From positions 1-21,445 of IMG/VR virus record IMGVR_UViG_2698536428_000013: a stretch of DNA of 21,445 bases. One strand, written 5' to 3'. Made by a program: the position numbers and the translations under genes. The notes under the pieces are model-generated. The model searched no databases and had not been told where the DNA came from. It saw only the letters and a list, made by a program, of their open reading frames with translations. This DNA comes from a virus. Taxonomy: Duplodnaviria; Heunggongvirae; Uroviricota; Caudoviricetes. Numbering within the stretch: the first letter of the stretch is position 1; the number at the start of each line of letters is the position of its first letter. Below, piece by piece: positions 1 to 21,445 of the stretch.

Positions 1-1980
1 TTATGCTGATTCCCGGTTTTCGTTAACTTTGACTGTGACCGTATCAAGCAGTACCGGATACGTCGCTTTTGCCCCCGTGATATCTGTCAGCGTCAGCGTA
101 TCTGCTGTAAAGCCATCATTTGTCCACATCACAAGGTCAAACGCCGTCTGCTCTGTACCATCAATCACCGGAACGACTCTTTCGCTGTTATTTCCCGCAA
201 AGCGGAAAACAACCGTATGCCAGTTATGGTCAAACGCACCAAATGTACCCAGTTGTGCATTCGACGTGCCCTTGTGGTGCATAAGATTCAGATTTGATGC
301 ATCCGTCTGAAGGAAGAATGATGCCAGCATACTGTTTGCTGCCGCGCCTGACGCCCACTGCGACACCGGCCAGTAGAGACCAAAGACAAACTGTCCGTTC
401 ACCAGTTCGCTTCCATCCGGAATTTTGAACCGTACGGCAATTTCCCCCCCCTTGCTGAGAAAATTTTTTGCCTCCTCCACTGCAACAGTACGGAACATTT
501 TCCAGGACGTCAGTTTACCGGGCTGTTTTTCCAGTCGCAGCGCTTTCCGTCCACCGTCATCAGTCACAGTGCCTTTGCCGCCGGAAGCACCCCACTGCTG
601 CTCTGTCAATGCACCATTTCCACTGTTCGCATCATATTCAGCCACCGTCCTGGTACTGCTCACGGCCCCATCATGACCAGTACCAGCAACACCGCCATCC
701 TGCGGTTTCTCAACATCCGGTGTCCCCGGACTGACAGGAGTTGTACCACCCGACTGCGGTGCGCTCTGCCCGGTAAGGAACGATAATGTCCGCCCGGCGT
801 ACTGCAAAATGGCACCTGCCAGGCGGTCTGAAACAAGGCCTCTTCGCGCCCATGAACTGAAGTGCGTTTTACGATCGGCTGCCGTCCAGTTACTGGCAGT
901 GCGTGAGGCAGCGCCATAGTATCCCGCCGGGATAATGTCCGGATCTTCTGACGGCTCGTTTGTCGGCACATTCACACCATGCTCATCCGTCATCAACGGC
1001 ACAAAGTGAATATTCTGCGCAACTTTGCCTTTATACCCACCGTAAACCGCCTCATACGGCGCTGCATACCTTTCCTTCCAGTAGTACGTGGTATCACCGC
1101 AAATCCACGGGACGCTGGCCGTTGTCCCGCCAGTACACTGCTCTGCCACATCTGCCAGTTCCGTACGGAACTGATTTACCATGGCAAGGAAAAGCGCATT
1201 GTGTTCTGCATGTCTCCCCGAACTGACATCTTTTTCCCCCTGCATCCAGATCACCGACAACAGCACGTTTTTCGGATTTTTCTTCAGGGCTGCACGCGTT
1301 CTGCTGACCAGGTCACGATACAACGGTTTATCCACCCCCCACAGGGAAGATCCCGCTGTCGCACCCGACGCCTCATTAAACGCGCCCTCTGCTCCCGCAG
1401 TAAATCCCGAATCGCCACGTCCACACGGGACAAGAAGGATCCCCGCACGGGCAGGCATAAACGGCAGCAGTTTTTTGGCCACATGCAGGGCATGCCCCAC
1501 ACAGCCATACTGCCCTTTATTGAGGTCTGCTTTCGGGTGATTCAGATTACTCACGTCCTGCACATCATGCAGACAATGGTCTGCAGGAATAATGTCGTTA
1601 TATGCACAGGCCGCACCGCCCGGTGTCACCGTGCTGCGACGCGCCAGTTGCTTAATACGCGGGTCAGGACGATCATACGTATCCGGCAGCGGCAGCCCCT
1701 CGCCAAAAGACATCGAGTTGGACTGCCCGGCCAGCGCAATGACAAAGTAATATTCCGGTTCGCTGGTGGTGCTGATAACAGCGCCACCATCACCCGACGG
1801 TTGCACCACCACCGGTGTGGTGACATCACCTTCCGCCGCAATGGCCTGCATCAGGGTATAGGGCGTGATGGCCACCGGACTGCCAAATGGCTGCCACCCC
1901 TCCTTCAGTTTTTGAGTCAGTCGCTCCGCAAGGTCTGACGGCGACGCCGCCCTGACCACGTCATAGTGTTTAAATGTCAT
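1..1980 (-). CDS. NanS-p-like sialate O-acetylesterase (DUF1737-like N-terminus plus SGNH/SASA esterase domain), 659 aa
   Basis: Complete ORF with TAA stop at bases 1-3. SD GGGAGG lies 5 nt upstream of the ATG at 1980. GQSN motif (ALAGQSNSMSFGEG) is typical of SGNH hydrolases. The N-terminus (MTFKHYDVVRAASPSDLAERLTQKLKEGWQPFG) resembles the N-terminus of NanS-p esterases of lambdoid/Stx prophages. It sits late, downstream of Q. Confidence 0.6.
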   Translation of the reverse strand: MTFKHYDVVRAASPSDLAERLTQKLKEGWQPFGSPVAITPYTLMQAIAAEGDVTTPVVVQPSGDGGAVISTTSEPEYYFVIALAGQSNSMSFGEGLPLPDTYDRPDPRIKQLARRSTVTPGGAACAYNDIIPADHCLHDVQDVSNLNHPKADLNKGQYGCVGHALHVAKKLLPFMPARAGILLVPCGRGDSGFTAGAEGAFNEASGATAGSSLWGVDKPLYRDLVSRTRAALKKNPKNVLLSVIWMQGEKDVSSGRHAEHNALFLAMVNQFRTELADVAEQCTGGTTASVPWICGDTTYYWKERYAAPYEAVYGGYKGKVAQNIHFVPLMTDEHGVNVPTNEPSEDPDIIPAGYYGAASRTASNWTAADRKTHFSSWARRGLVSDRLAGAILQYAGRTLSFLTGQSAPQSGGTTPVSPGTPDVEKPQDGGVAGTGHDGAVSSTRTVAEYDANSGNGALTEQQWGASGGKGTVTDDGGRKALRLEKQPGKLTSWKMFRTVAVEEAKNFLSKGGEIAVRFKIPDGSELVNGQFVFGLYWPVSQWASGAAANSMLASFFLQTDASNLNLMHHKGTSNAQLGTFGAFDHNWHTVVFRFAGNNSERVVPVIDGTEQTAFDLVMWTNDGFTADTLTLTDITGAKATYPVLLDTVTVKVNENRESA

Positions 1981-2174
1981 GAATCCTCCCGGTCGGGATA
2001 ATGTTGTGAGTCAGATGAGGGAACGGGCTGAAGTCCGGAAGTTACAGGACAATGGCAGGAGGAAGACTACAGCCCGCAATACGAAAAAGGCCGCGCTATT
2101 GCGCAGAGTGATTACTGTCGGATATTATTCGCCAGCTGAAATATTACTTCACGTTTTGTTGTTTATTCCTTGCC

Positions 2175-2203
2175 GCCCGCGTCTCCCAGCGCGGGCTTTT
2201 TTT
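2175..2203 (+). terminator. Intrinsic-terminator-like hairpin (GCCCGCG / CGCGGGC, 8-nt loop) followed by T7
   Basis: A 7-bp GC-rich stem at 2175-2181 and 2190-2196, then TTTTTTT at 2197-2203, seen directly in the sequence. Confidence 0.4.
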
Positions 2204-2204
2204 G

Positions 2205-2233
2205 TCCATAAGAAAGCCCCTCCGGAGAGGGGC
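2205..2233 (-). terminator. Intrinsic terminator (GCCCCTC-CGGA-GAGGGGC hairpin, U-rich tail on the minus strand)
   Basis: A 7-bp perfect stem at 2216-2222 and 2227-2233 with a tetraloop. On the minus strand it is followed by TTTCTTATGG. It lies downstream of the TerB-like gene and small ORF. Confidence 0.45.
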
Positions 2234-2474
2234 TGGAGAGTGGCGCTATGTGCCATTGCATGGTGCCGGGTGCCTCCCGGTGAGTTCAGTATCAGCACCT
2301 GAACCCGCACAGAAAGGATAAGGGTCGGTGACAAAACACCAGTTGCTGATTGCCCCTCCGCACAGGGGGATTCACCATGCCAGTTTCTTTTAACAAACTC
2401 CCCGCAAACCAGACAACAGTCAACCGCCTGAATTGTGAGGTATTTAAAAATTTCAACGGGTAACTGATACCCTG

Positions 2475-2627
2475 CTAATCGCCTGATGCTTTCTTTTTCA
2501 GCAACGGGGAAGCAACAACCACCACACCCGCCACCAGCACACCGTCAGCCAGCACTGACATTATCCGGCTGCTGAAGTCCACCATCACCACCAGAAACAG
2601 CAGGAGCGCAACCACAGCCAGACGCAT
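2475..2627 (-). CDS. Small hydrophobic membrane peptide, 50 aa (MRLAVVALLLFLVVMVDFSSRIMSVLADGVLVAGVVVVASPLLKKKASGD)
   Basis: Hand translation of the minus strand. The ATG lies 8 nt downstream of the TerB-like stop, so translational coupling is possible. Two hydrophobic stretches and a KKK C-terminal tail. Absent from the ORF track, presumably because it is under 60 aa. No strong SD. Confidence 0.35.
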   Translation of the reverse strand: MRLAVVALLLFLVVMVDFSSRIMSVLADGVLVAGVVVVASPLLKKKASGD

Positions 2628-2635
2628 TTTTACCG

Positions 2636-3067
2636 TCACAGATGATTCTCCAGACGAAGGCCCAGAACACCGGCAATCTCTTCCAGCACCTTGCGCTCTT
2701 CCGGCTCTATTTCGCCGTCTGCTTCGGCAACGGCCACCGCCACATCCAGCACGTCTTCCGCTTCACGCGTATCGTGTTTCACATCCTCGATCTCACGTAA
2801 CGCCGCTCGACGACCAATTTTAAAGTTCGTATCCAGCTGACCGATAATGGTTGCGCTAATCGCATTAATTTCTGACGTAAACGCGGACAACGCAGGCTGG
2901 TTACGCAAGACCTGCTCGATCTTCGCTTTCTCTGAAGCCTCACATTCACCATCTGCATAGGCCACCAGATAGGCTGCATTAATAACCGCCTGTGCCAGAT
3001 CACGTTTCTCAAACTTTTTAATTTCCACTGCCGCTCGGCGGGCTTTTTTACCAAAAATACCAAACAT
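2636..3067 (-). CDS. TerB-like domain protein (tellurite-resistance TerB family), about 143 aa
   Basis: Start chosen at the internal ATG (MFGIFGKK...) with SD AAGGA about 8 nt upstream. Two ADG-containing acidic motifs (YLVAYADGECEASEKAKIEQVL and VAVAEADGEIEPEERKVLEEIAGVLGL) resemble the repeated motifs of TerB. It is the first gene after Q and the tR'-like terminator. Confidence 0.55.
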   Translation of the reverse strand: MFGIFGKKARRAAVEIKKFEKRDLAQAVINAAYLVAYADGECEASEKAKIEQVLRNQPALSAFTSEINAISATIIGQLDTNFKIGRRAALREIEDVKHDTREAEDVLDVAVAVAEADGEIEPEERKVLEEIAGVLGLRLENHL

Positions 3068-3197
3068 CGTGACGTTCCTTTGGGTGGGTGAGCCAACGCC
3101 CGGGAGCGATCTGCCCACAGAGAAAGTCACACTGACCACTCCGTAAGCTCACCCCCGAAAGGCTCTGTGGTTGATATGCGCCGGGCGTGGCGCAGAT

Positions 3198-3223
3198 ACA
3201 AAAAAAGCCCGCCGAAGCGAGCC
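3198..3223 (-). terminator. tR'-like intrinsic terminator (GCUCGC-UUCG-GCGGGC hairpin plus U7-8)
   Basis: On the minus strand GCTCGCTTCGGCGGGC forms a 6-bp stem (one G-U) with a UUCG tetraloop, followed by TTTTTTTT. It lies about 180 nt downstream of the Q stop. Confidence 0.6.
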
Positions 3224-3235
3224 TGATAATAAATC

Positions 3236-3310
3236 TGGAGCGGGTAGCGGGAATCGAACCACGATAAGAAGGTTAACAGCCTTCCGTAATGACCTTTATA
3301 CGACTGACCC
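3236..3310 (-). other. tRNA-sized, tRNA-like element (probable degenerate or chimeric tRNA; not a confident functional tRNA)
   Basis: Minus-strand 75-nt segment GGGTCAG..CTCCA with U8, A14, G18G19, A21, a 5-bp anticodon stem GAAGG/CCTTC with loop CTGTTAA (U33, GTT, A37) and T-loop GGTTCGATTCC. The acceptor stem and T-stem do not pair. Confidence 0.3.
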
Positions 3311-3349
3311 AAATAAAAAAAGCCACCGTTGCAACTTAAGAGTCACTAA

Positions 3350-3400
3350 CGGCAGCATATGCCAATAGTGTTGCTCATTTGCTCAATGATGTCAACACGT
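3350..3400 (-). promoter_or_regulatory. Putative late promoter PR' / qut region downstream of Q
   Basis: TTGACA on the minus strand (plus coordinates 3390-3395) immediately after the Q stop. The -10 element is not clearly identifiable. Placement is by analogy to lambda PR'. Confidence 0.3.
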
Positions 3401-3401
3401 C

Positions 3402-3890
3402 CTATGCTACATGTTTAATTTTCTCTACACGTTTCCGGTTTTTAAACGCACTATCCAGAACCGGGTAAATCATAAACAACGAGGCATTAAGGATTTCGTC
3501 AACTTCCCGTCGACAGGTTGCGAGCGATGGTTTTTGAATGCGCCCGCCGCCCCGGCATAACATCTTGCGAGGTCTTGCGACGCAATGATAGTAAGATGCA
3601 ATGGCGTGCCTGGAAGAACCATGAGCGTAGTAGCTGAGGAGGATGCCGAAGGCTTTCTTGTCAATGTACATGACGGAATCGACGACCTGAGAAATCAACA
3701 TTCCATCATCATCATTACACATTGGTCTTGTCATAACTCTTCCCGGCTCTACGCTCTCCATGAACTTCGCTATTACGCTGCTCATGCGCTTTTCCAGACG
3801 ACCTGAATAAACCCATGCGCCCCACAGTTCAAGCCAGCCATTCAGCCAATCGTGCTGTTCTTTGGTGAGGTTTAGTTCTCTTATGCCCAT
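3402..3890 (-). CDS. Q: Late antiterminator Q (phage 21/82-type Q family, not lambda-type), 162 aa
   Basis: Position directly downstream of ninG. Conserved WGAW and CNDDD-type motifs (LELWGAWVYSG, PMCNDDDGMLI) as in the short Q antiterminator family. Confidence 0.65.
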   Translation of the reverse strand: MGIRELNLTKEQHDWLNGWLELWGAWVYSGRLEKRMSSVIAKFMESVEPGRVMTRPMCNDDDGMLISQVVDSVMYIDKKAFGILLSYYAHGSSRHAIASYYHCVARPRKMLCRGGGRIQKPSLATCRREVDEILNASLFMIYPVLDSAFKNRKRVEKIKHVA

Positions 3891-3933
3891 GCGACTTCTC
3901 CCTTGTTATCTGGAATGGTTTTTACTGAGAGCG

Positions 3934-4539
3934 TCATGCGGCCTCACTTCTGCTGTTTCGCAGGTCTTTGAGTTTCTGTTGGTACTCTGCCTTGATGGCC
4001 CTGCACTCTTCGACAGTCCAGCGATGGCGGTTATGGTTTGATTCGATTTCATCTACTGCTTCCTGCCCGATGCGGCTAATCAGTTCGACGCGATACGGAA
4101 CGAGATTTCCGCTTTTGTGCTGGTTGCACACCACGCATTGCTTGTGAATATTGCGTTCATCAAATCGGAGTTGAGGTGCCGCAGCAGTTGTCCGGTAATG
4201 TCCGGCATCCCACTGAGCAGACGTGAGCGTTCCGCACGAGATACATGGTAAGTCGCGGTCTCTTTCTCTGATGAAGGCGTTTACGGCTTGTTGGGCTTGT
4301 TTAATCCAGTAACTGCGGGGCTTTAAGGCGAGTTTTCGAATCTTCAGTTTATCTTTCTGTTTCTGCTCCTCTCGTCGTCGTTTATTCTCTGCTGCTTTTT
4401 CCGCTTTTTCGCGTTCTTTACTTCGTCGTTCGAGTGCTAATTGAGTTCCGTGTTCCGGGCAGCACCACCACTGATTTGAGAATGCCGGGTGAAACCATTC
4501 CTTGCATATTTTGCATTTCCTTCGCGCTGGTTTAGCCAT
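3934..4539 (-). CDS. ninG: NinG / Rap recombination endonuclease
   Basis: 201-aa product with Cys-rich N- and C-terminal motifs ([22 protein letters not shown]) matching recalled lambda NinG. TAATG overlap with the upstream gene. Confidence 0.85.
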
Positions 4540-5267
4540 TAAGCAGCCTCCCCTGTTACTTTCAGCATTCCGTTATCGAGCAGCTTTCTGGTCAGCCACT
4601 GTTGACCACGCCCGGTGATTTTTGTGGTGAACGATATCTGTATTCCGTGATTTGTGTTGACCGCTGTTTCTTTCACTGTGAAATAGCCGCGCTCCATATA
4701 TTCCTGCATTGGCACATTGCGCCGGGCACCTGAAGTAATAAGGATTTTGTGATCGCGCATCCACGCAAACAGTTTGTTTGGACCAATTCCAACAACCTTT
4801 GCATAGTTTCCAATCAAAATTCCGCTGGCCTCGCCAACGCGATCGGCAAACTCAACTTTAGGTGCTGCGAGAGCAAGCTGTTTCTCCAGTTCAGCCTTCT
4901 GGTCTTCAAGGTCGGCCGCAAGGCGCAATGCCTCAGAAAAGGTTTGTGGTATTTTCGCGGTTGCCCCTTCGAGTTCTCGCCAACGGTCAACAAGACGAGC
5001 GGTGAACTCTGGCGACAACTGAGCAACGACAATAATGCTGTCGCGCTTACCTTGTTCGCCCTCAAAAACGTAAGCATCTACGCCACGAAGTAATCCTAAG
5101 TTATTGATTTTTTCGAAAACCACCATTGGGGGATTTCGGATCACACCTCGAACCGCCAGTCGTTCAATGGATTGTTTCACCTTGTCATGACGACTTCCCA
5201 CCAACTCAGCGATTTCAATGCTTGTCATTTTGATGACGTTGCTATTTATCAGCTCGTTCATTGTCAT
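4539..5267 (-). CDS. Rha/Roi-family phage regulatory protein (antirepressor-like), about 240 aa
   Basis: N-terminal Rha-like motif ([23 protein letters not shown]) and nin-region position as for HK022 Roi. The start may be the second ATG (5261), which has better SD spacing. Confidence 0.55.
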
Positions 5268-5293
5268 GCCCTCTCATATTGAAAATTCAGCAA

Positions 5294-5319
5294 TAAAAAA
5301 CCCAGCCGAAGCTGGGTTT
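5294..5319 (-). terminator. Intrinsic terminator between the ORF6N-like gene and the Roi-like gene
   Basis: Minus strand ACCCAGC-TTCG-GCTGGGT hairpin followed by TTTTTTATT. Confidence 0.55.
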
Positions 5320-5335
5320 GTTAAGTTGTCAATTG

Positions 5336-6013
5336 TCAGTAGCGATGCAGTGAAGGCGGCAACTCTTTGCTCTTAAGCCTTACCCATGCGGAAAGATTCG
5401 TTGGTCCATCTGGCTCATTAATATCAACATCTCGTGTGTGATTGATTAAAACGTCTCTCGCCATTCCAATAACATACGAGAACTCATGACCGTAGTTGTA
5501 GCACCTGTCAGAATAGTTCGATTGAATTTGCTTTAGCGCCGGATACAGTTCGCGGAATAATGCCTGTGAACGGTTAGCATAATCCCATAGCCATACAAGG
5601 CTGTCTGTTTCTTTTGCGGAAAGCCCGTTGAGCTTCTTCTCTTGTTTGCCAGTATTTTTCTCGCCCTGGCTGAAATAGCAGTCTTCCAGTTTTTCGAACA
5701 CTTCCCACGCCTGATCGGTTTCGAGCATTTTTGCATGACGGGCTGCTCCGCGTTCTGTCCAGAGGATGAGGGAGCGGGCATTTTTACCAACTAACCCGAT
5801 TGTTTCGGGTCTGTTCTTAAACTCGCGTAATTCGTTTTTTTCAATTTTAAAGTAATGCTTTCCGGGCATGAATCGCGTCGTGTTGTTCAGAAAGTTATCA
5901 GAAATGTTTTTGATTTTTGTTCCGTAAAGGTGAGCCAACAGTTCAGTAGTAATTACGGGGATCTGGTTATAGGTAACAGGGGAAAGGTTTTCGACAGAAA
6001 TTTGAACAGCCAT
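5336..6013 (-). CDS. ORF6N/KilA-N-like domain phage protein (antirepressor-like), 225 aa
   Basis: SD GAGG 5 nt upstream of the ATG. The N-terminal segment ([23 protein letters not shown]...[15 protein letters not shown]) resembles ORF6N/Rha-type domains. Assignment is by motif memory only. Confidence 0.45.
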
Positions 6014-6176
6014 AATGACCTCGCGTTTCGATAATTTTTACCTCGCCACCGTCAGGTGCTAATCATCGTGGTGGCGAACTGTGCGGGGTTAGCACTACCG
6101 GTCGAAACATCCGGCGAGCCTTTCGGCTCCCCCACACAGCCCGCCATAAATCGCGAATGTGACTGTGCTTAGCGCA

Positions 6177-7796: not shown

Positions 7797-8494
7797 ACAC
7801 TTGCTCCTTTCAGTCCGAACTTAGCTTTAATTTCTGCGATCTTCGCCAGAGCCTGTGCTCGATTTAGAGGTCTGCCGCCCATGACAGGAAGTTGTTTTAC
7901 TGGTTCAGGTATCATCTCACCACGGTTAATTCGTGCTGTCATACAGGTCAGTTCATCGGCAGCCTTGCGCCGTAATTCCGCGTCAGTCAGCGCATTGGCC
8001 CGCATGTTCTGGTACAGGTTGGTAACCAGCCAGTAGTGCGCGTTTGATTTCCACGGATAAGACTCTGCATCCGGATACAGGCCACGCTTCCGGCAATACT
8101 CGTAAACCATATCAACCAGCTCGCTGACGTTTGGCAGTCCGGCGATAACGGATGCTTCTTCCCGGCACCATGCAACAAACTGCCCTGGTGATGGAAGAAA
8201 TGGTCGATTCTGCCGACGGGCTACGCGCATTCCTGCGTTAACCTGTTCCATCGAGGTGATCCCGTTTTCCCGGAAAGCCAGAACCCACTGGCGGCGGATT
8301 TCATTCAGTTCGTTCTGGTCCCGGTTAGCCAGACTCGCCGGGAAAGTTGCCAGTAACTGGCTGAACACACCGTTGATGATCTGCGCTACCTGTTGTACCT
8401 GCGGCTTTTCGTCGTACTGTTCCGGCATGTTGTTGGCGATCCGACGCATCTGCTCACGGTCAAAGTTAACCATCTGTGCGGCGATGTTTTTCAT
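7793..8494 (-). CDS. P: Replication protein P (DnaB helicase loader)
   Basis: 233-aa product MKNIAAQMVNFDREQMRRIANNMPEQYDEKPQ..., near-identical to recalled lambda P. Confidence 0.9.
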   Translation of the reverse strand: MKNIAAQMVNFDREQMRRIANNMPEQYDEKPQVQQVAQIINGVFSQLLATFPASLANRDQNELNEIRRQWVLAFRENGITSMEQVNAGMRVARRQNRPFLPSPGQFVAWCREEASVIAGLPNVSELVDMVYEYCRKRGLYPDAESYPWKSNAHYWLVTNLYQNMRANALTDAELRRKAADELTCMTARINRGEMIPEPVKQLPVMGGRPLNRAQALAKIAEIKAKFGLKGASV

Positions 8495-9429
8495 AAATCC
8501 ACCCCGTAAATCCAGTCAGTGTTTGTCAGGTCGAGTTTTGGTTTTCCAGCTGTCACGCCAGCCTGTTGCTTGTTACGGTTGATTTCGAGTTGGGTCCACT
8601 TGTCGCGGAGTTTGGCCGGACTTAGCACGTTACCGGACCAGAAGTTGTCCTGGCATGCCCAGCGGAACAGCACGCACATGTCGCGGTGGTTACGTCCGTC
8701 ACGTTCACGCATCAGGCGGATATCGTTAGCCCACCCTGCAAAATTCGGTTTTCTGGCTGATGGTGCGATGGTCTTCACCATGTCAAACATCCACTCTGCG
8801 GCGGTCAGGTCTTCTGCTGTTCCCCACTTGCTGCCGCTCTGAATTGCAGCATCCGGTTTAACCACAGAAAGATCGTTTTCTGGCTGGTCAGAGGATTCGC
8901 CAGAATTCTCGGACGAATAATCTTTTCTTTTTTCTTTTGTAATAGTGTCTTTTGTGTCCCCCTGTTTTGAGGGATAGCAATCCCCTAATTTGAGGGATGT
9001 TTTATCACTCGTTTTAGGGGATTTTCCCTCGTTTTGAGGGATGTCCCTCATTTTAGGGGAACCTCCCTCGTTTTGAGGGATGCACCATTCTGAGGTGTTT
9101 TTATTTGGTCCAAACATGCCGCCTTGCTGCTTGATAATATTCATTCTGACGAGTTCTAACTTGGCTTCATTGCACCGTTTGACGGGTAACTTTGTAATCT
9201 CGCTAAGTTGAGAATCGGTGATTCTGTCCATTGGTTTATTCCACCCATAGGTTTTACGCAGAATGGCAAGCAGCACTTTAAACTGTCGCTTGGTCAGATC
9301 TGCGCCTGAATAAGCCTCAAGCAGCATATTTGATAGTCTGGCGTAACCATCATCGAGATCTGCCACATTACGCTCCTGTTCGGCAAAGTTACCTCTGCCG
9401 AAGTTGAGTATTTTTGCTGTATTTGTCAT
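8491..9429 (-). CDS. O: Replication initiator O
   Basis: 312-aa product MTNTAKILNFGRGNFA..., near-identical to recalled lambda O. Contains the ori iterons. Confidence 0.9.
   Translation of the reverse strand: MTNTAKILNFGRGNFAEQERNVADLDDGYARLSNMLLEAYSGADLTKRQFKVLLAILRKTYGWNKPMDRITDSQLSEITKLPVKRCNEAKLELVRMNIIKQQGGMFGPNKNTSEWCIPQNEGGSPKMRDIPQNEGKSPKTSDKTSLKLGDCYPSKQGDTKDTITKEKRKDYSSENSGESSDQPENDLSVVKPDAAIQSGSKWGTAEDLTAAEWMFDMVKTIAPSARKPNFAGWANDIRLMRERDGRNHRDMCVLFRWACQDNFWSGNVLSPAKLRDKWTQLEINRNKQQAGVTAGKPKLDLTNTDWIYGVDL
8880..9085. repeat. ori-lambda-type origin: iteron array (TCCCTCAAAACGAGGGA-type inverted-repeat iterons, about 8950-9085) plus adjacent A+T-rich segment (8880-8949)
   Basis: Repeated ccctcgttttgaggga / cccctaatttgaggga / cactcgttttagggga units seen directly. 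An A+T-rich run (tcttttcttttttcttttgtaatagtgtcttttgtg) lies next to it inside the O gene. Confidence 0.8.
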
Positions 9430-9442
9430 AATGACTCCTGTG

Positions 9443-9516
9443 GATTGATCCAGTAATTCCCTCAGAATTGCATATCAATTTGCTTAGAGTCCCCGGCGGC
9501 CACCGGGGATTTTTTC
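9443..9516 (+). ncRNA. oop: oop-like antisense RNA with intrinsic terminator (CCCCGG-loop-CCGGGG plus T6)
   Basis: Hairpin at 9491-9508 followed by TTTTTT at 9511-9516 on the plus strand, antisense to the 3' end of the cII-like gene. Sequence and position resemble lambda oop. Confidence 0.5.
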
Positions 9517-9758
9517 TTTGTGATTCCATCAAGCGCATACTTAAAAGCCCTACTAATCGGACTGATGTCTGATGCCATTCCGAAAGCACACAAGACCGAA
9601 GCAATAAATCTCCAGTCCGTTCTGCTTATCTTCGATTCATGACAGCCAATCATCTTTGCCAGACCGCGCTGGGTAAGCGTTGACAGGTTGATGAGTAAAT
9701 CAGTTTCAGCGCGATCAATTTCTCGCTGTGATAGTTTGCTGTAACTTGTTTGTTCCAT
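9462..9758 (-). CDS. cII: cII-like transcriptional activator (non-lambda allele)
   Basis: 98-aa product. The C-terminal third (GITKKKSPVAAGDSKQIDMQF) is homologous to lambda cII (...ILTNKKRPAATERSEQIQMEF). Position is between cro and O. Confidence 0.65.
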   Translation of the reverse strand: MEQTSYSKLSQREIDRAETDLLINLSTLTQRGLAKMIGCHESKISRTDWRFIASVLCAFGMASDISPISRAFKYALDGITKKKSPVAAGDSKQIDMQF

Positions 9759-9843: not shown

Positions 9844-9890
9844 TCGCTTTGTCAGCGACGTAGGACGAATGTCCATTGTGAAAAGAGCGG
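9844..9890 (-). promoter_or_regulatory. nutR (boxA-like CGCTCTTTTCACAA plus P22-type boxB UCGCU-GACAA-AGCGA)
   Basis: Read on the minus strand between cro and cII. The boxB stem-loop has a GACAA loop as in P22-type nut sites. Confidence 0.5.
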
Positions 9891-9896
9891 TGTTAC

Positions 9897-10097
9897 TTAT
9901 GCAGTTGTTTTTTTGTTACTTGGGAAGGGCTTTATTTCTTCCGCATAAACGCTTCCATCAGCGTTTATAGTTAAAAAAATCTTTCGGCCTGCATGAATGG
10001 CCTTGTTAATCGCGCTTTGATATACGCCGAGATCTTTAGCCGTCTTGGTTTGCCCAAAGCGTATTGCATAATCTTTCAGGGTTATGCGTTGTTCCAT
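9897..10097 (-). CDS. cro: Cro repressor
   Basis: 66-aa product [66 protein letters not shown], lambda Cro with 2 substitutions. SD AAGGAGG upstream. Confidence 0.95.
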
Positions 10098-10121
10098 ACA
10101 ACCTCCTTAGTACAGGTAATC

Positions 10122-10192
10122 ATTATCACCGCTAGAGGTATAATAGTCAACACGCACGGTGTTAGATATTTATCCCTTGCGGTGATAGATTT
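10122..10192. promoter_or_regulatory. Right operator OR1-OR2-OR3 with divergent PR (minus) and PRM (plus)
   Basis: Operators are tatcaccgctagaggta (10124-10140), caacacgcacggtgtta (10148-10164) and tatcccttgcggtgata (10171-10187). PR has -35 TTGACT and -10 GATAAT on the minus strand. PRM -10 TAGATT lies just before the leaderless cI ATG at 10198. Confidence 0.85.
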
Positions 10193-10194
10193 AA

Positions 10195-10911
<717 letters not shown>

Positions 10912-10981
10912 TGAAGGGCTAAATGTCTCCTAATAAAAACAGCAATCATTTGAAATTATTAATAATTATAGAGGCTTAGTC

Positions 10982-11980
10982 TTGGAAATCAGCACGGCGG
11001 TTATTCATTCCGAAGAAGATGCTTTGCGTTTTGTTGAGATGTACATCGCTGGGCAAGATCTTCCTGATGGAATATCATTTGAAGGGTGGCCTAACTTAAC
11101 CTTCCGTCTTACTGGTGACAAATTTCATGGCAGTTTGACTCCTTCTGTCATGAAGGGTTTTGTTGAAATGCAGGCCCAAATAAACCGAGCTTATGCATTG
11201 TTAAAGTACGGAGTTCCTGACCCAAGAAAGCTTTCAAAAGAAGAGAAGGAAGCTATCGAAATTCAGGTGAATGTTGAGAATGGCTCGTCCTTGATAGAAG
11301 TTAATATGGATGGGTTCATGGGTGAGGTTATACAAACTGCGGTGAGTAAAGTGGGCCCTCAAGAGATCGTTATTACAGTTTTAGGGGTCGCTCTTATATG
11401 GGGCGGCGTCGTCCTATTCAAAAAATATCTAGAAGACCGCAAAGAGATTCGCATGGCAGAAGTAAAAAGCGAGTCTGAGCGTGAACACCTTGCGACCATG
11501 CGCTTCATGTCTGAGCAGGAAACAAAACGAAGTGAATTATTGACTCAGATTATTAGCGAAAAACCCAAGCTAGACAACATGGAAAGACTTGCTCATGACG
11601 CAAAAACCGACATAGTTAAATCATTTGTCAAGGCTGATACAGCTCAGATTGATGGCGTTGTATTGGATGCAGATCTATCCAAAACCCTCACTACAAATGC
11701 AAGGCGGAAATCAATGGAGATCCGCCTTGATGGAAATTATCGCATTGAAAAGGTTGACTCCACTGATCCAGAGAGCTTCAAAGTGCAAGTGAGAAATGTT
11801 GACTCCGATCTAAGAATATCGTGCATAGTACAAGATGTTTTTCTCGACGCATCCGAGCATAAAAAAGCTCTTCAGCAAGCTGAGTGGGATAGAAAACCAG
11901 TTCATTTGTCAATCAACGCAAAAGAACTAGATGGTGAAATAAAGTCCGCGATAATACTTTATGTCAAAGAGATAACATAA
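10982..11980 (+). CDS. Unknown single-pass membrane protein in the rexAB position (candidate exclusion or defense gene), 332 aa from the TTG start
   Basis: ORF 70 nt downstream of cI on the same strand. TTG start has SD AGAGG at 7-nt spacing; the alternative ATG is at 11039. One predicted TM helix (EIVITVLGVALIWGGVVLFKKYL), then a charged, probably coiled-coil segment. Followed by the t_imm-like terminator. No resemblance to RexA or RexB. Confidence 0.6.
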   Translation: MEISTAVIHSEEDALRFVEMYIAGQDLPDGISFEGWPNLTFRLTGDKFHGSLTPSVMKGFVEMQAQINRAYALLKYGVPDPRKLSKEEKEAIEIQVNVENGSSLIEVNMDGFMGEVIQTAVSKVGPQEIVITVLGVALIWGGVVLFKKYLEDRKEIRMAEVKSESEREHLATMRFMSEQETKRSELLTQIISEKPKLDNMERLAHDAKTDIVKSFVKADTAQIDGVVLDADLSKTLTTNARRKSMEIRLDGNYRIEKVDSTDPESFKVQVRNVDSDLRISCIVQDVFLDASEHKKALQQAEWDRKPVHLSINAKELDGEIKSAIILYVKEIT

Positions 11981-11987
11981 TCCTCAT

Positions 11988-12013
11988 CCCGGCCTCAGCG
12001 CCGGGTTTTCTTT
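11988..12013 (+). terminator. t_imm-like intrinsic terminator ending the cI operon
   Basis: CCCGGC-CTCAGC-GCCGGG hairpin followed by TTTTCTTT. Confidence 0.6.
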
Positions 12014-12162
12014 GCCTCACGATCGCCCCACCTAAAAACACATAACCAATTGTATTTGTTGAAAAATAAATAGATACAACTCACTAAACATCGCAATTCT
12101 GATCTCTCGCCCTCCAAAGCAATACCCCAATTCAAAAAATAAATTCATATAAAAAACATACA

Positions 12163-12235
12163 GATAACCATCTGCGGTGATGAGTTATCTCTAGCGGTGT
12201 TGACACAAATACCACTAGCGGTGATACTAAACACA
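12163..12235 (+). promoter_or_regulatory. Left operator OL3-OL2-OL1 with PL promoter (rightward in this window)
   Basis: -35 TTGACA at 12200-12205 and -10 GATACT at 12223-12228. Operators are taccactagcggtgata, tatctctagcggtgttg and aaccatctgcggtgatg. Near-identical to recalled lambda PL/OL. Confidence 0.8.
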
Positions 12236-12296
12236 TCAGCAGGACGCACTACTCACCAGGGCGGTGAATATACAACGATTCGAATATGAATCTACG

Positions 12297-12440: not shown

Positions 12441-12824
12441 ATGACACGCAGAACTCAGTTCAAAGGCAATTCACGTTCTCGTCGTCGTGAGCGTTTAAAG
12501 GCAAAGGCATTAGCTAACGGCGTGCTGGCCCGCGAAGAAGCAATAAGTTCAGAAGTATTACACCGCCCTACTCTAAGCAGAGCGCAGATTCAGGCTAAAG
12601 GTACTCACGAAACGCCTGAGCGCATAGAAGACGCTAAGCCAATTAAGTTCATGGCACAGGACGTGATCTGGCAACAGAAAGAATACAGACGCAATCTGGA
12701 GCGAGCGGCCATTGTGTACGCGAATGAGTTTGGACATAAGCAACCAGAAACTGGTGTATGTCTTCCAAACGTAGCCATTTACGCGGCAGGCTACCGGAAA
12801 TCCAAACAACTGACGGCAAGGTGA
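12441..12824 (+). CDS. N: N-family antiterminator (P22 gp24-like), 127 aa
   Basis: Start at ATG 12441 with SD AGGAGG at 6-nt spacing. Arginine-rich N-terminus (MTRRTQFKGNSRSRRRERLKAKA). C-terminus AIYAAGYRKSKQLTAR resembles recalled P22 gp24 (..ALYAAGHRKSKQITAR). Confidence 0.7.
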   Translation: MTRRTQFKGNSRSRRRERLKAKALANGVLAREEAISSEVLHRPTLSRAQIQAKGTHETPERIEDAKPIKFMAQDVIWQQKEYRRNLERAAIVYANEFGHKQPETGVCLPNVAIYAAGYRKSKQLTAR

Positions 12825-12885
12825 CTTGTGTTGGTCGCCAGAAAATGAAATTAGGCAGCAAACCACTTATTTGAGAGGAATTAAT

Positions 12886-13509
12886 ATGTCATCAATCCGC
12901 TTAACTACGAGAATGAAAGAGGAAATCGCTCGTAACGCTTTAATTAAGTCCGGGGTGTTCACTGAACTTGAAGAAGTAACAAAGTTAAAGAACCAGCTTG
13001 CACTTGACGCCAGAGTTATTGCGTTTGGCGGTAAAAAGAAAACTGAGGAAGTGGATCAGTTATCATCCAAGTTGGTAGCTATAAGTGAAGAACTTGGAAA
13101 GATGGGATGTTCATTTTACTCATACGATGTTAGTTCTACTTCAATTTATCTGACTGTATCTGGCAGAAGGGTTGGATGGCATTCATATGGGAAAGACGGC
13201 AACGGCAAAGATATATTGCTCCCTACTCCGATCAAAGATAAATGCATGTTTGACGCAGAACACGAAATAACAAAAAGGTTTGATGAAATCTGCGCATTGC
13301 AACAAAAACTTGAAGCCAAGAAAAAGGATATCGAATCAAATGTATGGGCTGCTTTGAAATCAGTCACAACAGTTAAGCGACTTATTGAAGTTTGGCCTGA
13401 AAGCAAAGAATTGCTACCAAAAGAAGCAGATAAAGCAAGTACAGCACTTCCTGCTTTACGGGTAGAAGATTTGAATAAGATGATTGGACTTCCTTCCGAG
13501 GCCGCATAA
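12886..13509 (+). CDS. Hypothetical early-left protein, 207 aa, in the ral/sieB/ea10 position
   Basis: SD GAGAGG 6-7 nt upstream of ATG 12886. No recognisable motif; charged, probably helical. Confidence 0.55.
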   Translation: MSSIRLTTRMKEEIARNALIKSGVFTELEEVTKLKNQLALDARVIAFGGKKKTEEVDQLSSKLVAISEELGKMGCSFYSYDVSSTSIYLTVSGRRVGWHSYGKDGNGKDILLPTPIKDKCMFDAEHEITKRFDEICALQQKLEAKKKDIESNVWAALKSVTTVKRLIEVWPESKELLPKEADKASTALPALRVEDLNKMIGLPSEAA

Positions 13510-18917: not shown

Positions 18918-20051
18918 TTAATAATTATAATACCCCATGCACAATGCCATCTGAGTCATCATATCCTGGTCTCTATCAATATTTATCTTGCCATCAGAAA
19001 AATCCAACACAAAGAAATGATGAAATTTCGGCGGAACAACTTTAGAGTAAAAGCAGAAATACTCATTATTCCTTTCATATTGAAAATTAACGTATATTTT
19101 TTTAATTTTTTTATTTTCCACTAGGTCCATAAACATTTTATTTAAATCTGACCTTTTACTTTCCTTGTCATCATCTTGAAGCTTAGGATCAAAGTAACGT
19201 ATTAAGCAGTTTTCAATAACTCTCCCCTCATTATCAACATCAATTTCATCCAGTAGAGAATTTGAAATATTAAAGACCACATTACATTTATTATTCAGAG
19301 ATATAATCCTTGGATTAAATATACTAAAACAAACAAAAAAATCATTATCGTCATTTGAAACGCTATACAGCATCTTTGATAAGCCACGGTGAATAAAATC
19401 AACAGGGCGCCGATGCGGATGACGTGTATATCCTACGTAATGCACTTCTGTATGAATTCCTAAATCAATATAATGTCCGTTTACGAAATCATGAACTGAC
19501 ATCACACATAAATTGCCATTTTCATATTCAATGTAGAGAAACTTCTCAGTTACTCTAACATTTGGAGTTACCTTCACTACCCCATTCTGCGTAAACGTGC
19601 AAAAGGAATATTTTATCCGAAGCTTTCGCTCTTCTTTGCCAATCAACAGAGTGAATACTATATTTTTTGTGAATGGGTTATACCTAGGCTGTTTCTTGGT
19701 TGAAAACCTCACTTTTTTTCTTGAACCTAAGAAATAAATAAATCTCTTTTCACAGCTTTCCCTCGTATATTTTTCCATAATTCTGAGATAGTTCTTTATT
19801 ATCTTATTTGTTCTTATATCATCAGGAGGATTAATTATCATATCATACCAAATACAATCGGTGTTAATGAGATCAATCCACAATGACTTATCGGCTTCTG
19901 AGAAAACCACGTTAGAGTTTATAAAATCAAAGTTTCCGCGAGTCATAAAACACTTCATCACATTAAAAATCACCTGCACATAATAAATTAAGTAGCAGAA
20001 GGTTCGCAAACCCTTACTTCTGTTTGTGCTATGATATTTTTCATAATTCAT
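18918..20051 (-). CDS. A+T-rich hypothetical cargo protein, 377 aa
   Basis: Long minus-strand ORF. Sampled 60-nt lines count about 18-30% G+C, against about 45-58% for neighbouring phage genes. Lies between the excisionase-like gene and the integrase. No motif recognised. Confidence 0.6.
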   Translation of the reverse strand: MNYEKYHSTNRSKGLRTFCYLIYYVQVIFNVMKCFMTRGNFDFINSNVVFSEADKSLWIDLINTDCIWYDMIINPPDDIRTNKIIKNYLRIMEKYTRESCEKRFIYFLGSRKKVRFSTKKQPRYNPFTKNIVFTLLIGKEERKLRIKYSFCTFTQNGVVKVTPNVRVTEKFLYIEYENGNLCVMSVHDFVNGHYIDLGIHTEVHYVGYTRHPHRRPVDFIHRGLSKMLYSVSNDDNDFFVCFSIFNPRIISLNNKCNVVFNISNSLLDEIDVDNEGRVIENCLIRYFDPKLQDDDKESKRSDLNKMFMDLVENKKIKKIYVNFQYERNNEYFCFYSKVVPPKFHHFFVLDFSDGKINIDRDQDMMTQMALCMGYYNY

Positions 20052-20209: not shown

Positions 20210-21445
20210 CTACGCAAACTGTCCGTTGGAGATTAAGTCAGTACAAGTAACGATCGATTCAACCCTCTCCCACCATGCCCAGTAAGCTTTACGCTGTTCT
20301 TCTAGATAATCGCTCTTATCATAAACTTGCCATACACCTGGCAGTTTATGACCAAGCATTATTTCAGCAATATGAGGAGCAGTAAGATCAGAAAAGTTTG
20401 TTCGTGCTGTTCGTCTCAAATCATGAAGAGACCAATGAGGAAATTGATACCCCAAACGTCGCCATGCGAACTGCATTAAATTGTAAGGCAGCGACTGCAA
20501 TGATGTCCGACCAACTGGCTCCCTGCTTCCTTCCTTAGTAAAAAGCATATCGGAACCGTTGTTCATAGAGATAACGTATTTTATAAGCTCTTCAACCGGT
20601 TCAATAATGGGCCGCTTTAGCGGTTCGCCTGTTATGTCCCCAGTCTTATGTCGTTCTGGTGGTACAGTCCATACCTTATCTATGAAATCAAAATCATCCA
20701 CCCGGGCAGTAATTAGCTCTGAACTACGGCAACCAAAATGCAGCAATAGTTTAATGAAGGCCCGGTATTTAGGAACCATTCGAGAACCATCGATCGCAGC
20801 ATAAAGGATTTTAATTTCATCATGTGTCAGAAACCGTTTCTTCTGACCTTTACGGATATCCATATCTTTACCCGTGATATCCGACAGCGGGCGAGTTTCA
20901 ATGAGCTTTCTCTTATACGCCCAGACATGGGCCTGCTTTGCGTTAATTAGCAATCGGTCTGCTATTGCTGGAGTCTTAGTGCTAAGAGGCTCCAGGACCT
21001 CTAACCAATCATGCAATGTAGCTACATCGTGAGGGATACTCCCGATTTTAGAGAACAGGTGCAGCTCAAATGAGCGGAGTATCTGCTCAGAACCTTTTTT
21101 ATTTTTTACACAATATGCTGCATACCAGGCACGGATCACAGACTCCACCGTCATGGCTTCAGTAGCTTTGCGTTTTTCTACCTGCTTGACCAATCGTGGA
21201 TTGCGGTTTGACTCGAGTTCACCACGAAGACGGATAACTTCTTCTCTGGCCTCTTTTAATCCAGTTGCCGGGTAAGTTCCGATATCAAGGCGCTCGCCTT
21301 TCCCTGCCCATTGATAACGATATTGGAACACTACGCGACCTTTCGGTGATACTCTGACAGACAAACCATCACGATCGGATTTAACCAAAACCTTATCACG
21401 TTCCTTTCCAACGACTGAACGCAACCACGCATCAGACAACGCCAT
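20210..21445 (-). CDS. int: Tyrosine integrase (P4-type, N-terminal arm-binding domain), 411 aa
   Basis: N-terminus MALSDAWLRSVVGKERDKVLVKSDRDGLSVRVSPKG is typical of P4-like integrases. C-terminal catalytic motifs HDLRRTARTN and Y in VYDKSDYLEEQR. The start codon is the last 3 bases of the window. Confidence 0.85.
   Translation of the reverse strand: MALSDAWLRSVVGKERDKVLVKSDRDGLSVRVSPKGRVVFQYRYQWAGKGERLDIGTYPATGLKEAREEVIRLRGELESNRNPRLVKQVEKRKATEAMTVESVIRAWYAAYCVKNKKGSEQILRSFELHLFSKIGSIPHDVATLHDWLEVLEPLSTKTPAIADRLLINAKQAHVWAYKRKLIETRPLSDITGKDMDIRKGQKKRFLTHDEIKILYAAIDGSRMVPKYRAFIKLLLHFGCRSSELITARVDDFDFIDKVWTVPPERHKTGDITGEPLKRPIIEPVEELIKYVISMNNGSDMLFTKEGSREPVGRTSLQSLPYNLMQFAWRRLGYQFPHWSLHDLRRTARTNFSDLTAPHIAEIMLGHKLPGVWQVYDKSDYLEEQRKAYWAWWERVESIVTCTDLISNGQFA

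Follow-up and report, generated by a model that had tools for sequence, protein, structure and literature searches.

Introduction

The interval between cI and N of lambdoid phages is a classic site for lysogen-expressed exclusion genes, and most of the cargo carried there has never been tested. Superinfection exclusion (Sie) proteins, such as P22 SieA, T4 Imm and Sp, HK97 gp15 and lactococcal Sie2009, are non-enzymatic membrane proteins, each the product of a single gene that is carried by a prophage or expressed early; those known are small, fast-evolving and specific to phage lineages, and the classical sie genes often lie beside the repressor or in moron slots among the tail genes. In CBASS Cap15 and NfeD-type proteins, a membrane helix or helices are followed by a small ligand- or partner-binding domain, either a beta-barrel or an OB domain. 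BstA, from the Salmonella prophage BTP1, has a KilA-N DNA-binding domain and is not known to be a membrane protein.

The known abortive-infection cargo of the slot includes rexAB in lambda and bstA in BTP1 (PMC8585504), and the same paper, citing Degnan 2007, presents the cI-to-N slot as a cargo hotspot. The abstract of PMC11077077 describes RexB as a multi-pass membrane protein and RexA as a DNA-binding dimer. SNIPE, a membrane-bound nuclease active at genome injection, is held by a single-pass anchor helix with its N-terminus periplasmic and the rest cytoplasmic; where the phage enters the cell, the cytoplasmic domain binds both its DNA and the tape-measure complex (PMC13190303).

Here we analyse a 21,445-nt stretch of phage DNA (IMG/VR record IMGVR_UViG_2698536428_000013), hereafter called the window, in which a gene for a 332-aa protein occupies the place of rexAB. 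This gene is a new cargo family within the already known hotspot.

Results

The cI-to-N interval

The interval and its flanks carry the following features, in window coordinates.

9897..10097, minus strand: cro of lambda type, an ORF divergent from cI, with 96% nucleotide identity to lambda across cro-cI
10098..10197, no strand assigned: OR/PRM/PR control region, collinear with lambda OR1-3, with PRM function assigned from lambda
10198..10911, plus strand: cI repressor, 237 aa, lambda immunity type, from the ORF and the lambda alignment
10912..10981, plus strand: 70-nt AT-rich spacer, read from the sequence, the first part of the swapped cassette
10982..11980, plus strand: 332-aa ORF with a TTG start (stop codon 11978-11980), a PHROG 6191 member, RefSeq WP_000406300.1
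11988..12015, plus strand: intrinsic terminator, a homologue of lambda t_imm by its hairpin and lambda homology, at the right edge of the swapped cassette
12180..12267, plus strand: OL/PL region (the left edge, 12180, is an estimate), within the lambda-homologous block 11988-12267, with lambda OL1-3 in the matching part of lambda
12441..12824, plus strand: ORF for the N antiterminator, 127 aa from MTRRTQ, similar to N of HK97 and mEp234 and not to lambda N

Homology to lambda falls into a left block (window 9883-10912, lambda 38255-37226, 96%) and a right block (window 11988-12267, lambda 35824-35550, 90%). Because of where these blocks end, we conclude that lambda 35825-37225, which holds rexB, rexA and the cI-rexA spacer, is replaced by window 10913-11987, a cassette of 1,075 bp with breakpoints at 10912/10913 and 11987/11988. 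The initial annotation had placed an uncharacterised ORF in the position of rexAB, 70 nt downstream of cI on the same strand and ahead of a clean terminator; the coordinates agree, and the lambda alignment makes the replacement an exact swap between the cI stop codon and t_imm. On the cI strand, the 332-aa ORF is the only one of at least 40 aa that lies wholly between these two points. The flanking genes have annotated counterparts: near-identical E. coli prophages label the cro counterpart as Cro/CI family, the 127-aa N peptide is annotated by PGAP in a related prophage, and similarity to HK97, mEp234 and HK106 runs through N at ~96%. Promoter scanning found a PR-like sequence, TTGACT-17-GATAAT, at 10150-10122 on the minus strand and a PL-like sequence, TTGACA-17-GATACT, at 12200-12228.

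The RefSeq coding sequence WP_000406300.1 covers the same 999 nt as our ORF, and an AGAGG ribosome-binding site lies in the spacer at 10970-10974, 7 nt before the TTG. Since homologue alignments begin at residue ~4-11 and E11 is nearly invariant, the TTG, and not Met20, is the right start. The gene is real and under purifying selection: dN/dS against a 98%-identical copy is 0.019, and all nine copies in E. coli genomes are intact, whereas a frameshift or stop would have suggested decay. Those nine come from 5,426 complete E. coli genomes, so that its presence is both patchy and rare. A full-length lambda-type cI is found in 618 of the same genomes, and seven of these (~1%) carry the gene.

Co-transcription with the repressor from PRM had also been proposed. 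The layout part of that claim holds, as scans of the 70-nt gap between cI and the ORF found no terminator-like or promoter-like site, and the t_imm-homologous hairpin (CCCGGCC-TCAG-CGCCGGG and a T-run, with six G-C pairs and a 6-nt loop) begins 8 nt after the stop codon; expression from PRM itself we infer from lambda. By this arrangement the ORF would be the last gene of the cI transcript, running from PRM/PRE to t_imm, as rexAB are in lambda. Scanning for promoters ahead of the gene, both in the window and in the Q-lysis slot described below, gave scores no better than those of shuffled controls.

Relatives and their genomic contexts

Clustered at 50% identity, the family comprises at least 1,551 clusters, nearly all of ~330 aa, and scanning of its longer members (350-430 aa) found no fused domains. 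We found the loci of relatives with an alignment of the closer family members. At least six different repressors have a member, at 33-100% identity, immediately or almost immediately downstream. In four loci (L001, L019, L021 and L023) the gene is 100% identical and comes after a different S24 repressor, and in L001 the same spacer has moved with it. In L024/25, a 155-aa HTH repressor has a 98% copy behind it, and S24 repressors precede copies at 86% (L026), 69% (L028/L079), 64% (L077) and 57% (L080) identity, as well as 45% members in L095 and, one gene further on, in L094. Further afield, a 33% member begins 31 nt after the S24 repressor of Moraxella phage Mcat17, and in a Pasteurellaceae prophage cI and the gene for a BstA-like KilA-N protein of 283 aa precede a 47% member. 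The seven repressor-adjacent contexts inspected (the window and six loci) all have a terminator hairpin after the gene.

At least five distinct slots are occupied by the family. In 47 of 80 IMG/VR loci, the gene lies antisense between Q and the lysis genes; elsewhere, it is found beside an integrase, in Mu-like prophages and at a P2-like tail end. One group of prophages has it among tail-module genes, beside a DUF6246 gene, and in L084/L086 the tape-measure gene lies downstream of it. Mu-like phages carry the gene in the same orientation as their lysis and late genes, in one case directly upstream of holin and SLT genes, and lysogen expression is therefore not universal. Outside prophages, one member is a lone chromosomal gene and another, with a Type ISP restriction enzyme and a GmrSD_C fragment next to it, sits on a mobile island. 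In the neighbourhoods seen there was no cyclase or SPFH partner gene.

Pasteurella phage Pmp14 encodes a full-length family member (hhalign 99.4%) near a type VI retron (RT_VI 2e-88, HTH_VI 2e-32), with a toxin-repressor gene pair ~3 kb upstream. An Rfam scan of this locus gave no retron ncRNA model, only a tRNA and a sub-threshold sRNA. Because HTH_VI and RT_VI presumably already make up a type VI retron, we take the Pmp14 family member as a neighbour of that system and not as a demonstrated effector.

The interval itself carries other genes in related prophages: a survey of E. coli prophages of lambda immunity found hicAB, KilA-N, NYN, DUF3024 or DUF2335 genes as alternative cargo in the same slot.

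Protein architecture

The AlphaFold2 (AF2) model of the protein (pLDDT 87) is partitioned into an N-domain (1-122), a hydrophobic helix (126-146), further helices (143-217) and a beta-rich C-domain (219-332). All parts are encoded on the plus strand.

10982..11347, plus strand: N-terminal acidic alpha/beta domain, aa 1-122, AF2 elements E5-8 through H110-121
11360..11419, plus strand: hydrophobic, small-residue-rich helix, aa 127-146, QEIVITVLGVALIWGGVVLF, a predicted inner-membrane anchor from its hydrophobicity
11420..11635, plus strand: charged helical stalk, aa 147-218, AF2 helices 143-160, 164-171, 178-193 and 195-217
11636..11977, plus strand: C-terminal OB-fold domain, aa 219-332, from the predicted structure

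The order and boundaries of N-domain, hydrophobic helix, charged stretch and C-domain given in the initial annotation agree with this model, and the region that it had labelled as probably coiled-coil is modelled as four helices.

The single strongly hydrophobic helix that had been described is borne out by calculation. The Kyte-Doolittle 19-mer mean of its core, EIVITVLGVALIWGGVVLF (aa 128-146), is 2.33, and the second-best window of the protein reaches 0.65, i.e. there is a single hydrophobic segment. The helix has an approximate Hessa dG of +0.5 kcal/mol, compared with 5-13.6 in eight other proteins encoded in the window. In 52 of 54 homologues the most hydrophobic segment is at this position, and Enterobacterales members conserve G135, W140, G141 and G142. 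Across the family, the median approximate dG is +2.5, with values up to 6 in some members, and in some homologues the segment contains a Lys; this marginal hydrophobicity in part of the family argues against membrane anchoring. Most homologues have four or five K/R after the helix and one or two before it, a charge bias by which the stalk and OB-fold are predicted to be cytoplasmic and the acidic N-domain to be outside. Such an N-out/C-in topology, which we infer from sequence, is unusual in that it would demand export of a folded 125-aa domain (10 K/R) that has no signal peptide.

The N-domain has a net charge of -9 and a pI of 4.6 (family mean 4.8). Q64 and G101 are invariant in it and W36, P37, G45, T53, P54, S102 and S103 nearly so; in the stalk, L150 is invariant and R153, E180 and R183 are nearly invariant. 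The C-terminal domain is, in the predicted structure, an OB-fold, a five-stranded beta-barrel with a helix between strands 3 and 4. OB-folds are too generic for any ligand to be implied, and the acidity of this one (family mean pI 5.5) weakens its reading as a sensor of DNA or other nucleic acid. The PDB and BFVD structural matches listed were either to the OB domain or weak and whole-length, with none for the N-domain. Three weak whole-length BFVD matches (E about 1e-5, TM-score 0.26-0.33) were to a DUF6575 protein, a Myoviridae metagenome protein and the Leptospira phage LE1 protein Q6NE06.

Database searches

The only significant PHROG match of the protein was to phrog_6191 (1e-137), annotated as 'unknown function'. 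It had been called uncharacterised pending a profile search, and the searches are in keeping with that description: Pfam and NCBIfam gave no match, the 5,027 defence-protein models of PADLOC-DB v2, candidate systems included, gave no family at E<=1, and a PDB sequence-profile search returned a chance match alone (E 0.94). For the members from Mcat17 and Pmp14, PADLOC-DB v2 likewise gave no family at E<=0.01. The earlier failure to recognise a kinase, nuclease, ATPase or RexA/RexB motif was repeated with domain scans, which were empty; the Pfam scan found no KilA-N, NfeD, DUF4041 or nuclease domain, and no Pfam or PHROG model annotated as superinfection exclusion (SieB etc.) was matched. Homology to RexA or RexB was rejected by hhalign, in which a 54-sequence family profile gave probabilities of 0.08% and 0.18%, respectively. 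A Pfam match to aRib, seen when scanning at E<=1, was dismissed as sub-threshold (17.9 bits against a cut-off of 27). WP_000406300 and phrog_6191 are absent from the full texts searched, and WP_000406300 is absent from the DefensePredictor supplements.

Discussion

The best explanation of this locus is that the 332-aa ORF is an accessory, or 'moron', gene of the prophage, predicted to be expressed in the lysogen. Its presence is patchy, alternative cargo takes up the same site in other prophages, the gene brings its own terminator, and the family has several insertion slots. A membrane-anchored exclusion or abortive-infection function had been proposed from position only; recurrence beside repressors, the moron slots and the defence neighbours now carry that hypothesis beyond position, and it is strengthened. 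We lean towards an anti-phage exclusion or defence function of some kind, and consider a Rex-like abortive-infection version of it possible but doubtful. The strong constraint on a gene so patchy and rare speaks for exclusion, as does the known abortive-infection cargo of the slot; the lack of a PADLOC match and the absence of WP_000406300 from the searched full texts and the DefensePredictor supplements speak against it.

We suggest that a single polypeptide may serve as a membrane-anchored phage-exclusion protein, with the central small-residue helix as its inner-membrane anchor, and that it would stop another infecting phage at the membrane. The stalk together with the OB domain would recognise a ligand from the invader, a protein more probably than DNA, and recognition could lead to oligomerisation of the Gly/Ala-rich helices, a leak and the collapse of membrane potential. 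Two points count against the abortive version: the abortive-infection membrane effectors known so far are usually multi-pass, and self-immunity at induction would be required, of which none is evident. A bolder form of the same idea, which we think unlikely, is a new and widespread single-gene anti-phage system of unprecedented architecture, in which the OB domains of a bitopic protein form a ring that gates a viroporin-like bundle of Gly/Ala-rich single helices. The OB domain resembles the ring-forming B subunits of AB5 toxins, and one polypeptide would do the work of RexA and RexB together, sensing the invader and depolarising the cell, carried by temperate phages of many lineages in lysogeny-expressed slots.

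The likeness to RexAB lies in the slot, from the cI stop to t_imm, in the geometry of the transcription unit and in membrane association (co-transcription and membrane anchoring being predicted here), the 332-aa protein being proposed as both sensor and membrane effector. However, there are two genes in lambda and one here, sequence and profile similarity are absent, and in place of a two-gene sensor and multi-pass channel we find one helix, an N-domain with no match and an OB-fold. BstA shares the format of a single-gene cargo directly downstream of the repressor with its own terminator, and in the Pasteurellaceae prophage one slot holds both a KilA-N gene and a family member; the 332-aa protein differs in having no KilA-N match, and we identified no aba-like self-immunity element. 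SNIPE offers a model for an anchored protein that meets the incoming phage, but it combines DUF4041 with a GIY-YIG nuclease and carries its helix close to the N-terminus, whereas scans of our protein found neither DUF4041 nor a nuclease and its helix follows a 125-aa domain. With Cap15 and NfeD-type proteins it shares the logic of a membrane helix plus an OB domain, but not a PADLOC or Pfam NfeD match or a cyclase or SPFH neighbour.

Among the alternatives, non-suicidal superinfection exclusion survives best, and we rate it as less probable than not by some distance. Here an inner-membrane protein would block genome entry and the cell would survive, as with P22 SieA, T4 Imm and HK97 gp15-like proteins, by binding a host channel component or the tape-measure or ejection proteins of the invader. 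A single gene with one membrane helix and no detected enzymatic domain fits this well, an acidic OB domain suits protein binding over DNA binding, and a block at entry poses no self-immunity problem at induction. The placement of the gene among tail-module genes or upstream of the tape-measure gene, and in the orientation of the lysis and late genes in Mu-like phages, is also in keeping with it, as is the precedent of SNIPE, a single-pass N-out/C-in protein active at the injection site (PMC13190303). However, the known Sie proteins are much smaller and lineage-restricted, whereas across many proteobacterial lineages this family keeps a 330-aa three-domain architecture, of which two domains are globular and conserved, together with invariant residues, and it has members outside prophages.

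It is also conceivable, but improbable, that the gene is a lysogenic-conversion or host-fitness factor of the bor or lom kind, unrelated to phages and acting in the envelope, stress or virulence, or that it modulates the lysis-lysogeny switch or lysis timing of its own phage. Non-defence cargo is also found in accessory slots, Q and a holin gene adjoin the family gene in most loci, published abstracts report that RexA biases the lambda switch, and no PADLOC or other defence model was matched. However, in the Q-lysis slot the gene is antisense to the late operon and therefore not part of the lysis cassette; its presence in only ~1% of lambda-immunity prophages means that it does not belong to the core components of switch or lysis; and it recurs beside restriction, retron and KilA-N genes. 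Finally, the protein might be a soluble or peripheral oligomer whose buried helix inserts on activation or never, as the missing signal peptide, the 125-aa domain ahead of the helix and the high dG values and Lys residues of some homologues would allow, but this too is unlikely given a hydrophobicity far outside that of the soluble controls, the constant place of the segment and a positive-inside bias in most members.

Membrane-acting phage exclusion thus remains the reading that we favour. The breadth of the family is notable, as it extends over lambda-like, Mu-like and P2-like prophages, a mobile island and a lone chromosomal gene while being absent from Pfam and PADLOC-DB v2. If phage exclusion is its function, the mechanism would be a new, single-gene and membrane-based one, and a single protein would then serve as a simple model of the coupling between sensing and membrane action in Rex-type systems. 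Otherwise, this would still be a broadly conserved prophage membrane protein that is worth defining as a family.

Organization of the prophage and the exchange next to cI

The window is a lambdoid prophage, oriented opposite to the usual lambda map. Its outer genes include Q, NinG, two antirepressor-like genes, a TerB-domain gene, a NanS-p-like esterase, an Nmad5 gene and an integrase.

1-1980, NanS-p-like esterase (DUF1737, SASA and DUF6645)
2636-3139, minus strand, TerB-domain protein of 167 aa (Pfam TerB, 1e-15), between Q and the esterase
3402-3890, Q
4539-5267, minus strand, ANT/Rha antirepressor-like gene of the nin region
5336-6013, minus strand, ORF6N/P22_AR_C antirepressor-like gene of the nin region, adjacent to the preceding gene
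8491-9429, minus strand, O
9462-9758, minus strand, cII
9897-10097, minus strand, cro
10198-10911, plus strand, cI
10982-11980, plus strand, the 332-aa ORF
12441-12824, plus strand, N of the HK97/mEp234 type
12826-13509, plus strand, Nmad5 (nucleotide-modification-associated domain 5) gene, directly after N (Pfam E 1e-70)
18918-20051, minus strand, 377-aa ORF adjoining the integrase
20210-21445, integrase

The initial annotation placed the 332-aa ORF on the strand of cI, 70 nt past its stop codon, in place of rexAB, and the ORF map and BLAST comparison with lambda support both statements. Window 9883-10912 corresponds to lambda 38255-37226 and window 11988-12267 to lambda 35824-35550, so that lambda 35825-37225 (rexB, rexA and the cI-rexA spacer) has been swapped for window 10913-11987, with breakpoints immediately past the cI stop codon and at the foot of t_imm. 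The RefSeq CDS WP_000406300.1 is the same 999 nt, and AGAGG lies 7 nt 5' of its TTG start, the correct one, since homologue alignments begin within a dozen residues of the N terminus and E11 hardly varies.

The clean terminator described before OL/PL was found as a G+C-rich hairpin and T-run at 11988-12015, 3' of the ORF, and a PL-like promoter lies at 12200-12228. Since a scan of the gap between cI and the ORF gave no promoter-like or terminator-like site, and t_imm follows the gene, the layout supports co-transcription with cI. A t_imm-like hairpin (CCCGGCC...GCCGGG) is present at 11988-12005 and directly 3' of the gene in L024, L026 and L028, loci with copies of 98%, 86% and 69% identity, and is kept even where the flanks are otherwise unrelated; it either moves with the cassette or marks the recombination joint.

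Other cargo was seen in the same prophage. The TerB gene lies in the Q-downstream slot, the site of stx in Stx phages, and so represents another accessory cargo. The 377-aa ORF occupies a typical int-adjacent slot, has no Pfam match at E<=0.001 and is a candidate second uncharacterised accessory gene. An Nmad5 gene is also found one small ORF past N in the related E. coli prophage PD7.

A variable slot and a constrained gene

A full lambda-type cI was found in 618 of 5,426 E. coli genomes, and the 332-aa ORF stood behind it in only seven. The survey of the cI-to-OL interval in related prophages that the initial annotation had proposed revealed varied alternative cargo: rexAB, hicAB, HK97 gp48/49, an NYN-domain gene, a KilA-N gene, DUF3024 with two unknown genes, DUF2335 and other unknown genes, all in lambda-immunity phages or prophages. 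The cI-to-N interval has already been described as a mosaic hotspot housing abortive-infection genes (Degnan et al. 2007; PMC8585504, discussion). Cargo in the rex slot is a known kind of thing; no description of this protein family or its architecture was found in the libraries and literature searched, a coverage excluding Brenes & Laub 2025.

The gene is real, constrained and part of a large family. The 5,426 complete E. coli genomes contain nine copies, every one intact and with an identity of at least 99.9%, and comparison with the 98%-identical copy (93.6% nucleotide identity) gave dN 0.006, dS 0.341 and dN/dS 0.019. A word-indexed search returned 122 full-length relatives, every one named hypothetical, from sources including Enterobacterales, Pasteurellaceae, Pseudomonas, Oceanospirillaceae and Caballeronia. 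Searching exhaustively with a profile gave at least 1,551 cluster representatives (50% identity) at E<=1e-3 and 599 at E<=1e-30; among the 150 matches listed, nearly all were 320-360 aa and matched end to end. Ten longer members (348-430 aa) had no recognisable extra domain. Several E. coli entries of a 63%-identity sister clade (P0057, P0059 and P0050) lack the first 38-65 residues, and P0045 of the same clade is a contig-end partial. Such entries may reflect decay in cryptic prophages, or else annotation or contig-end artefacts, and no comparable N-terminal truncation was seen in the window protein's own clade.

Profile HMM searches, also proposed initially, agree that the protein is uncharacterised and unlike RexA or RexB: there was no significant match in Pfam, NCBIfam or PADLOC, the sole PHROGs match was phrog_6191 ("unknown function"), the family profile found no solved relative in the PDB, and profile alignment to lambda RexA and to RexB was negative.

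Predicted architecture and membrane topology

An AlphaFold2 model built with a 54-sequence alignment (mean pLDDT 86.7, pTM 0.69) bears out the proposed order of N-domain, hydrophobic helix and C-terminal domain, as follows.

aa 1-122, alpha/beta N-domain
aa 126-146, hydrophobic helix
to residue 217, four further helices
C-terminal (OB) domain, five-stranded barrel in which a helix separates strands 3 and 4

The single strongly hydrophobic helix was likewise recovered, with a Kyte-Doolittle mean of 2.33 and a position-independent Hessa estimate of +0.5 kcal/mol (5-13.6 for other window proteins). Hydrophobicity peaks at this same alignment position in 52 of the 54 homologues. Across the family the Hessa estimate has a median of 2.5, with some members reaching 6. 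That the helix is not a resting membrane anchor strikes us as improbable; this reading concerns anchoring only and is compatible with every functional reading. Most homologues carry 4-5 K/R on the C-side of the helix and 1-2 on the N-side, a bias that predicts a cytoplasmic stalk and OB domain and would therefore leave the 125-aa acidic N-domain outside, an unusual location for a domain of pI 4.6 without a signal peptide. The OB domain is also acidic on average (pI 5.5), which counts against a simple nucleic-acid-binding role. The helix is rich in small residues, and G135, G141 and G142 are conserved in Enterobacterales members.

Genomic contexts of the family

The genomic contexts of the family are the main new evidence. 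The 100%-identical gene also lies behind a different S24 repressor (L001 and three IMG/VR loci), the 98% copy behind a 155-aa HTH repressor, and copies at 86%, 69%, 64% and 57% identity behind S24 repressors. Members of 45% identity directly follow an S24 repressor (L095) or an endonuclease I gene (L094), in a Pasteurellaceae lambdoid prophage a 47% member stands behind cI and a gene for a 283-aa KilA-N protein, and 31 nt separate an S24 repressor from the 33% member that follows it in Moraxella phage Mcat17. A terminator hairpin lies 3' of the stop codon in the window and in all six repressor-adjacent loci inspected.

At L094 (3590-6960) the order is S24 repressor, gene whose product has endonuclease I and Excalibur domains, family member, the last two sharing the repressor-downstream slot. 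In the Pasteurellaceae prophage (L100, 4367-7002) cI (S24), the KilA-N gene and the family member lie on a single strand, and another KilA-N gene is found at 10334-11107. The 283-aa protein resembles BstA in carrying a KilA-N domain, and this rex slot has two candidate exclusion genes stacked one behind the other.

The slot separating the Q antiterminator from the lysis genes, which carries stx in Stx phages, contains the gene on the opposite strand at 47 of the 80 IMG/VR loci, often with an orphan DNA methylase beside it. In this slot at L031, and at some 15 IMG/VR loci like it (4245-5675), a 350-aa orphan N6/N4 DNA methylase and a 75-aa ORF separate the family member from the holin. Other prophage sites adjoin the integrase or have a tail-module or antirepressor context, and members also occur just 5' of the lysis genes in Mu-like prophages and at a P2-like tail end.

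In Pasteurella phage Pmp14 (L014), the gene directly behind a type VI retron encodes a full-length member (hhalign 99.4%), and a toxin-repressor gene pair lies about 3 kb upstream. This cluster, at the phage genome end (888-6032), runs from the pair through a tRNA and the retron (HTH_VI and RT_VI) to the family member; Rfam models gave no retron ncRNA match there. Outside prophages, a mobile island carries a member beside a Type ISP restriction enzyme and a GmrSD_C fragment, and others lie beside an IS element or alone among housekeeping genes. Directly upstream of the member on the marine island (L003-L005, 3564-4586, plus strand), adjoining the Type ISP enzyme, is a protein of 331-340 aa that matches nothing in Pfam or PADLOC and could be another uncharacterised island cargo.

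Possible functions

We lean towards the 332-aa ORF being defence or exclusion cargo, because the family recurs in lysogeny-expressed or insulated accessory slots, has restriction, retron and KilA-N gene neighbours, and is patchy in distribution yet constrained. Tentatively, the protein may be a Rex-like sensor-effector in one polypeptide, in which the OB and stalk module would sense some component of the invader and oligomerisation of the small-residue helices would make the membrane leaky. Nearly as likely, and still doubtful, is a non-suicidal block to genome entry, which would suit a protein with one helix, an acidic OB domain and no enzyme domains, and would pose no self-immunity problem; SNIPE is a precedent for an anchored protein that acts at the injection site (PMC13190303). 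A non-defence role, in host fitness or in modulating the switch or lysis, seems unlikely. No partner gene is conserved across the contexts described, which argues that the family member acts as a single-gene module.
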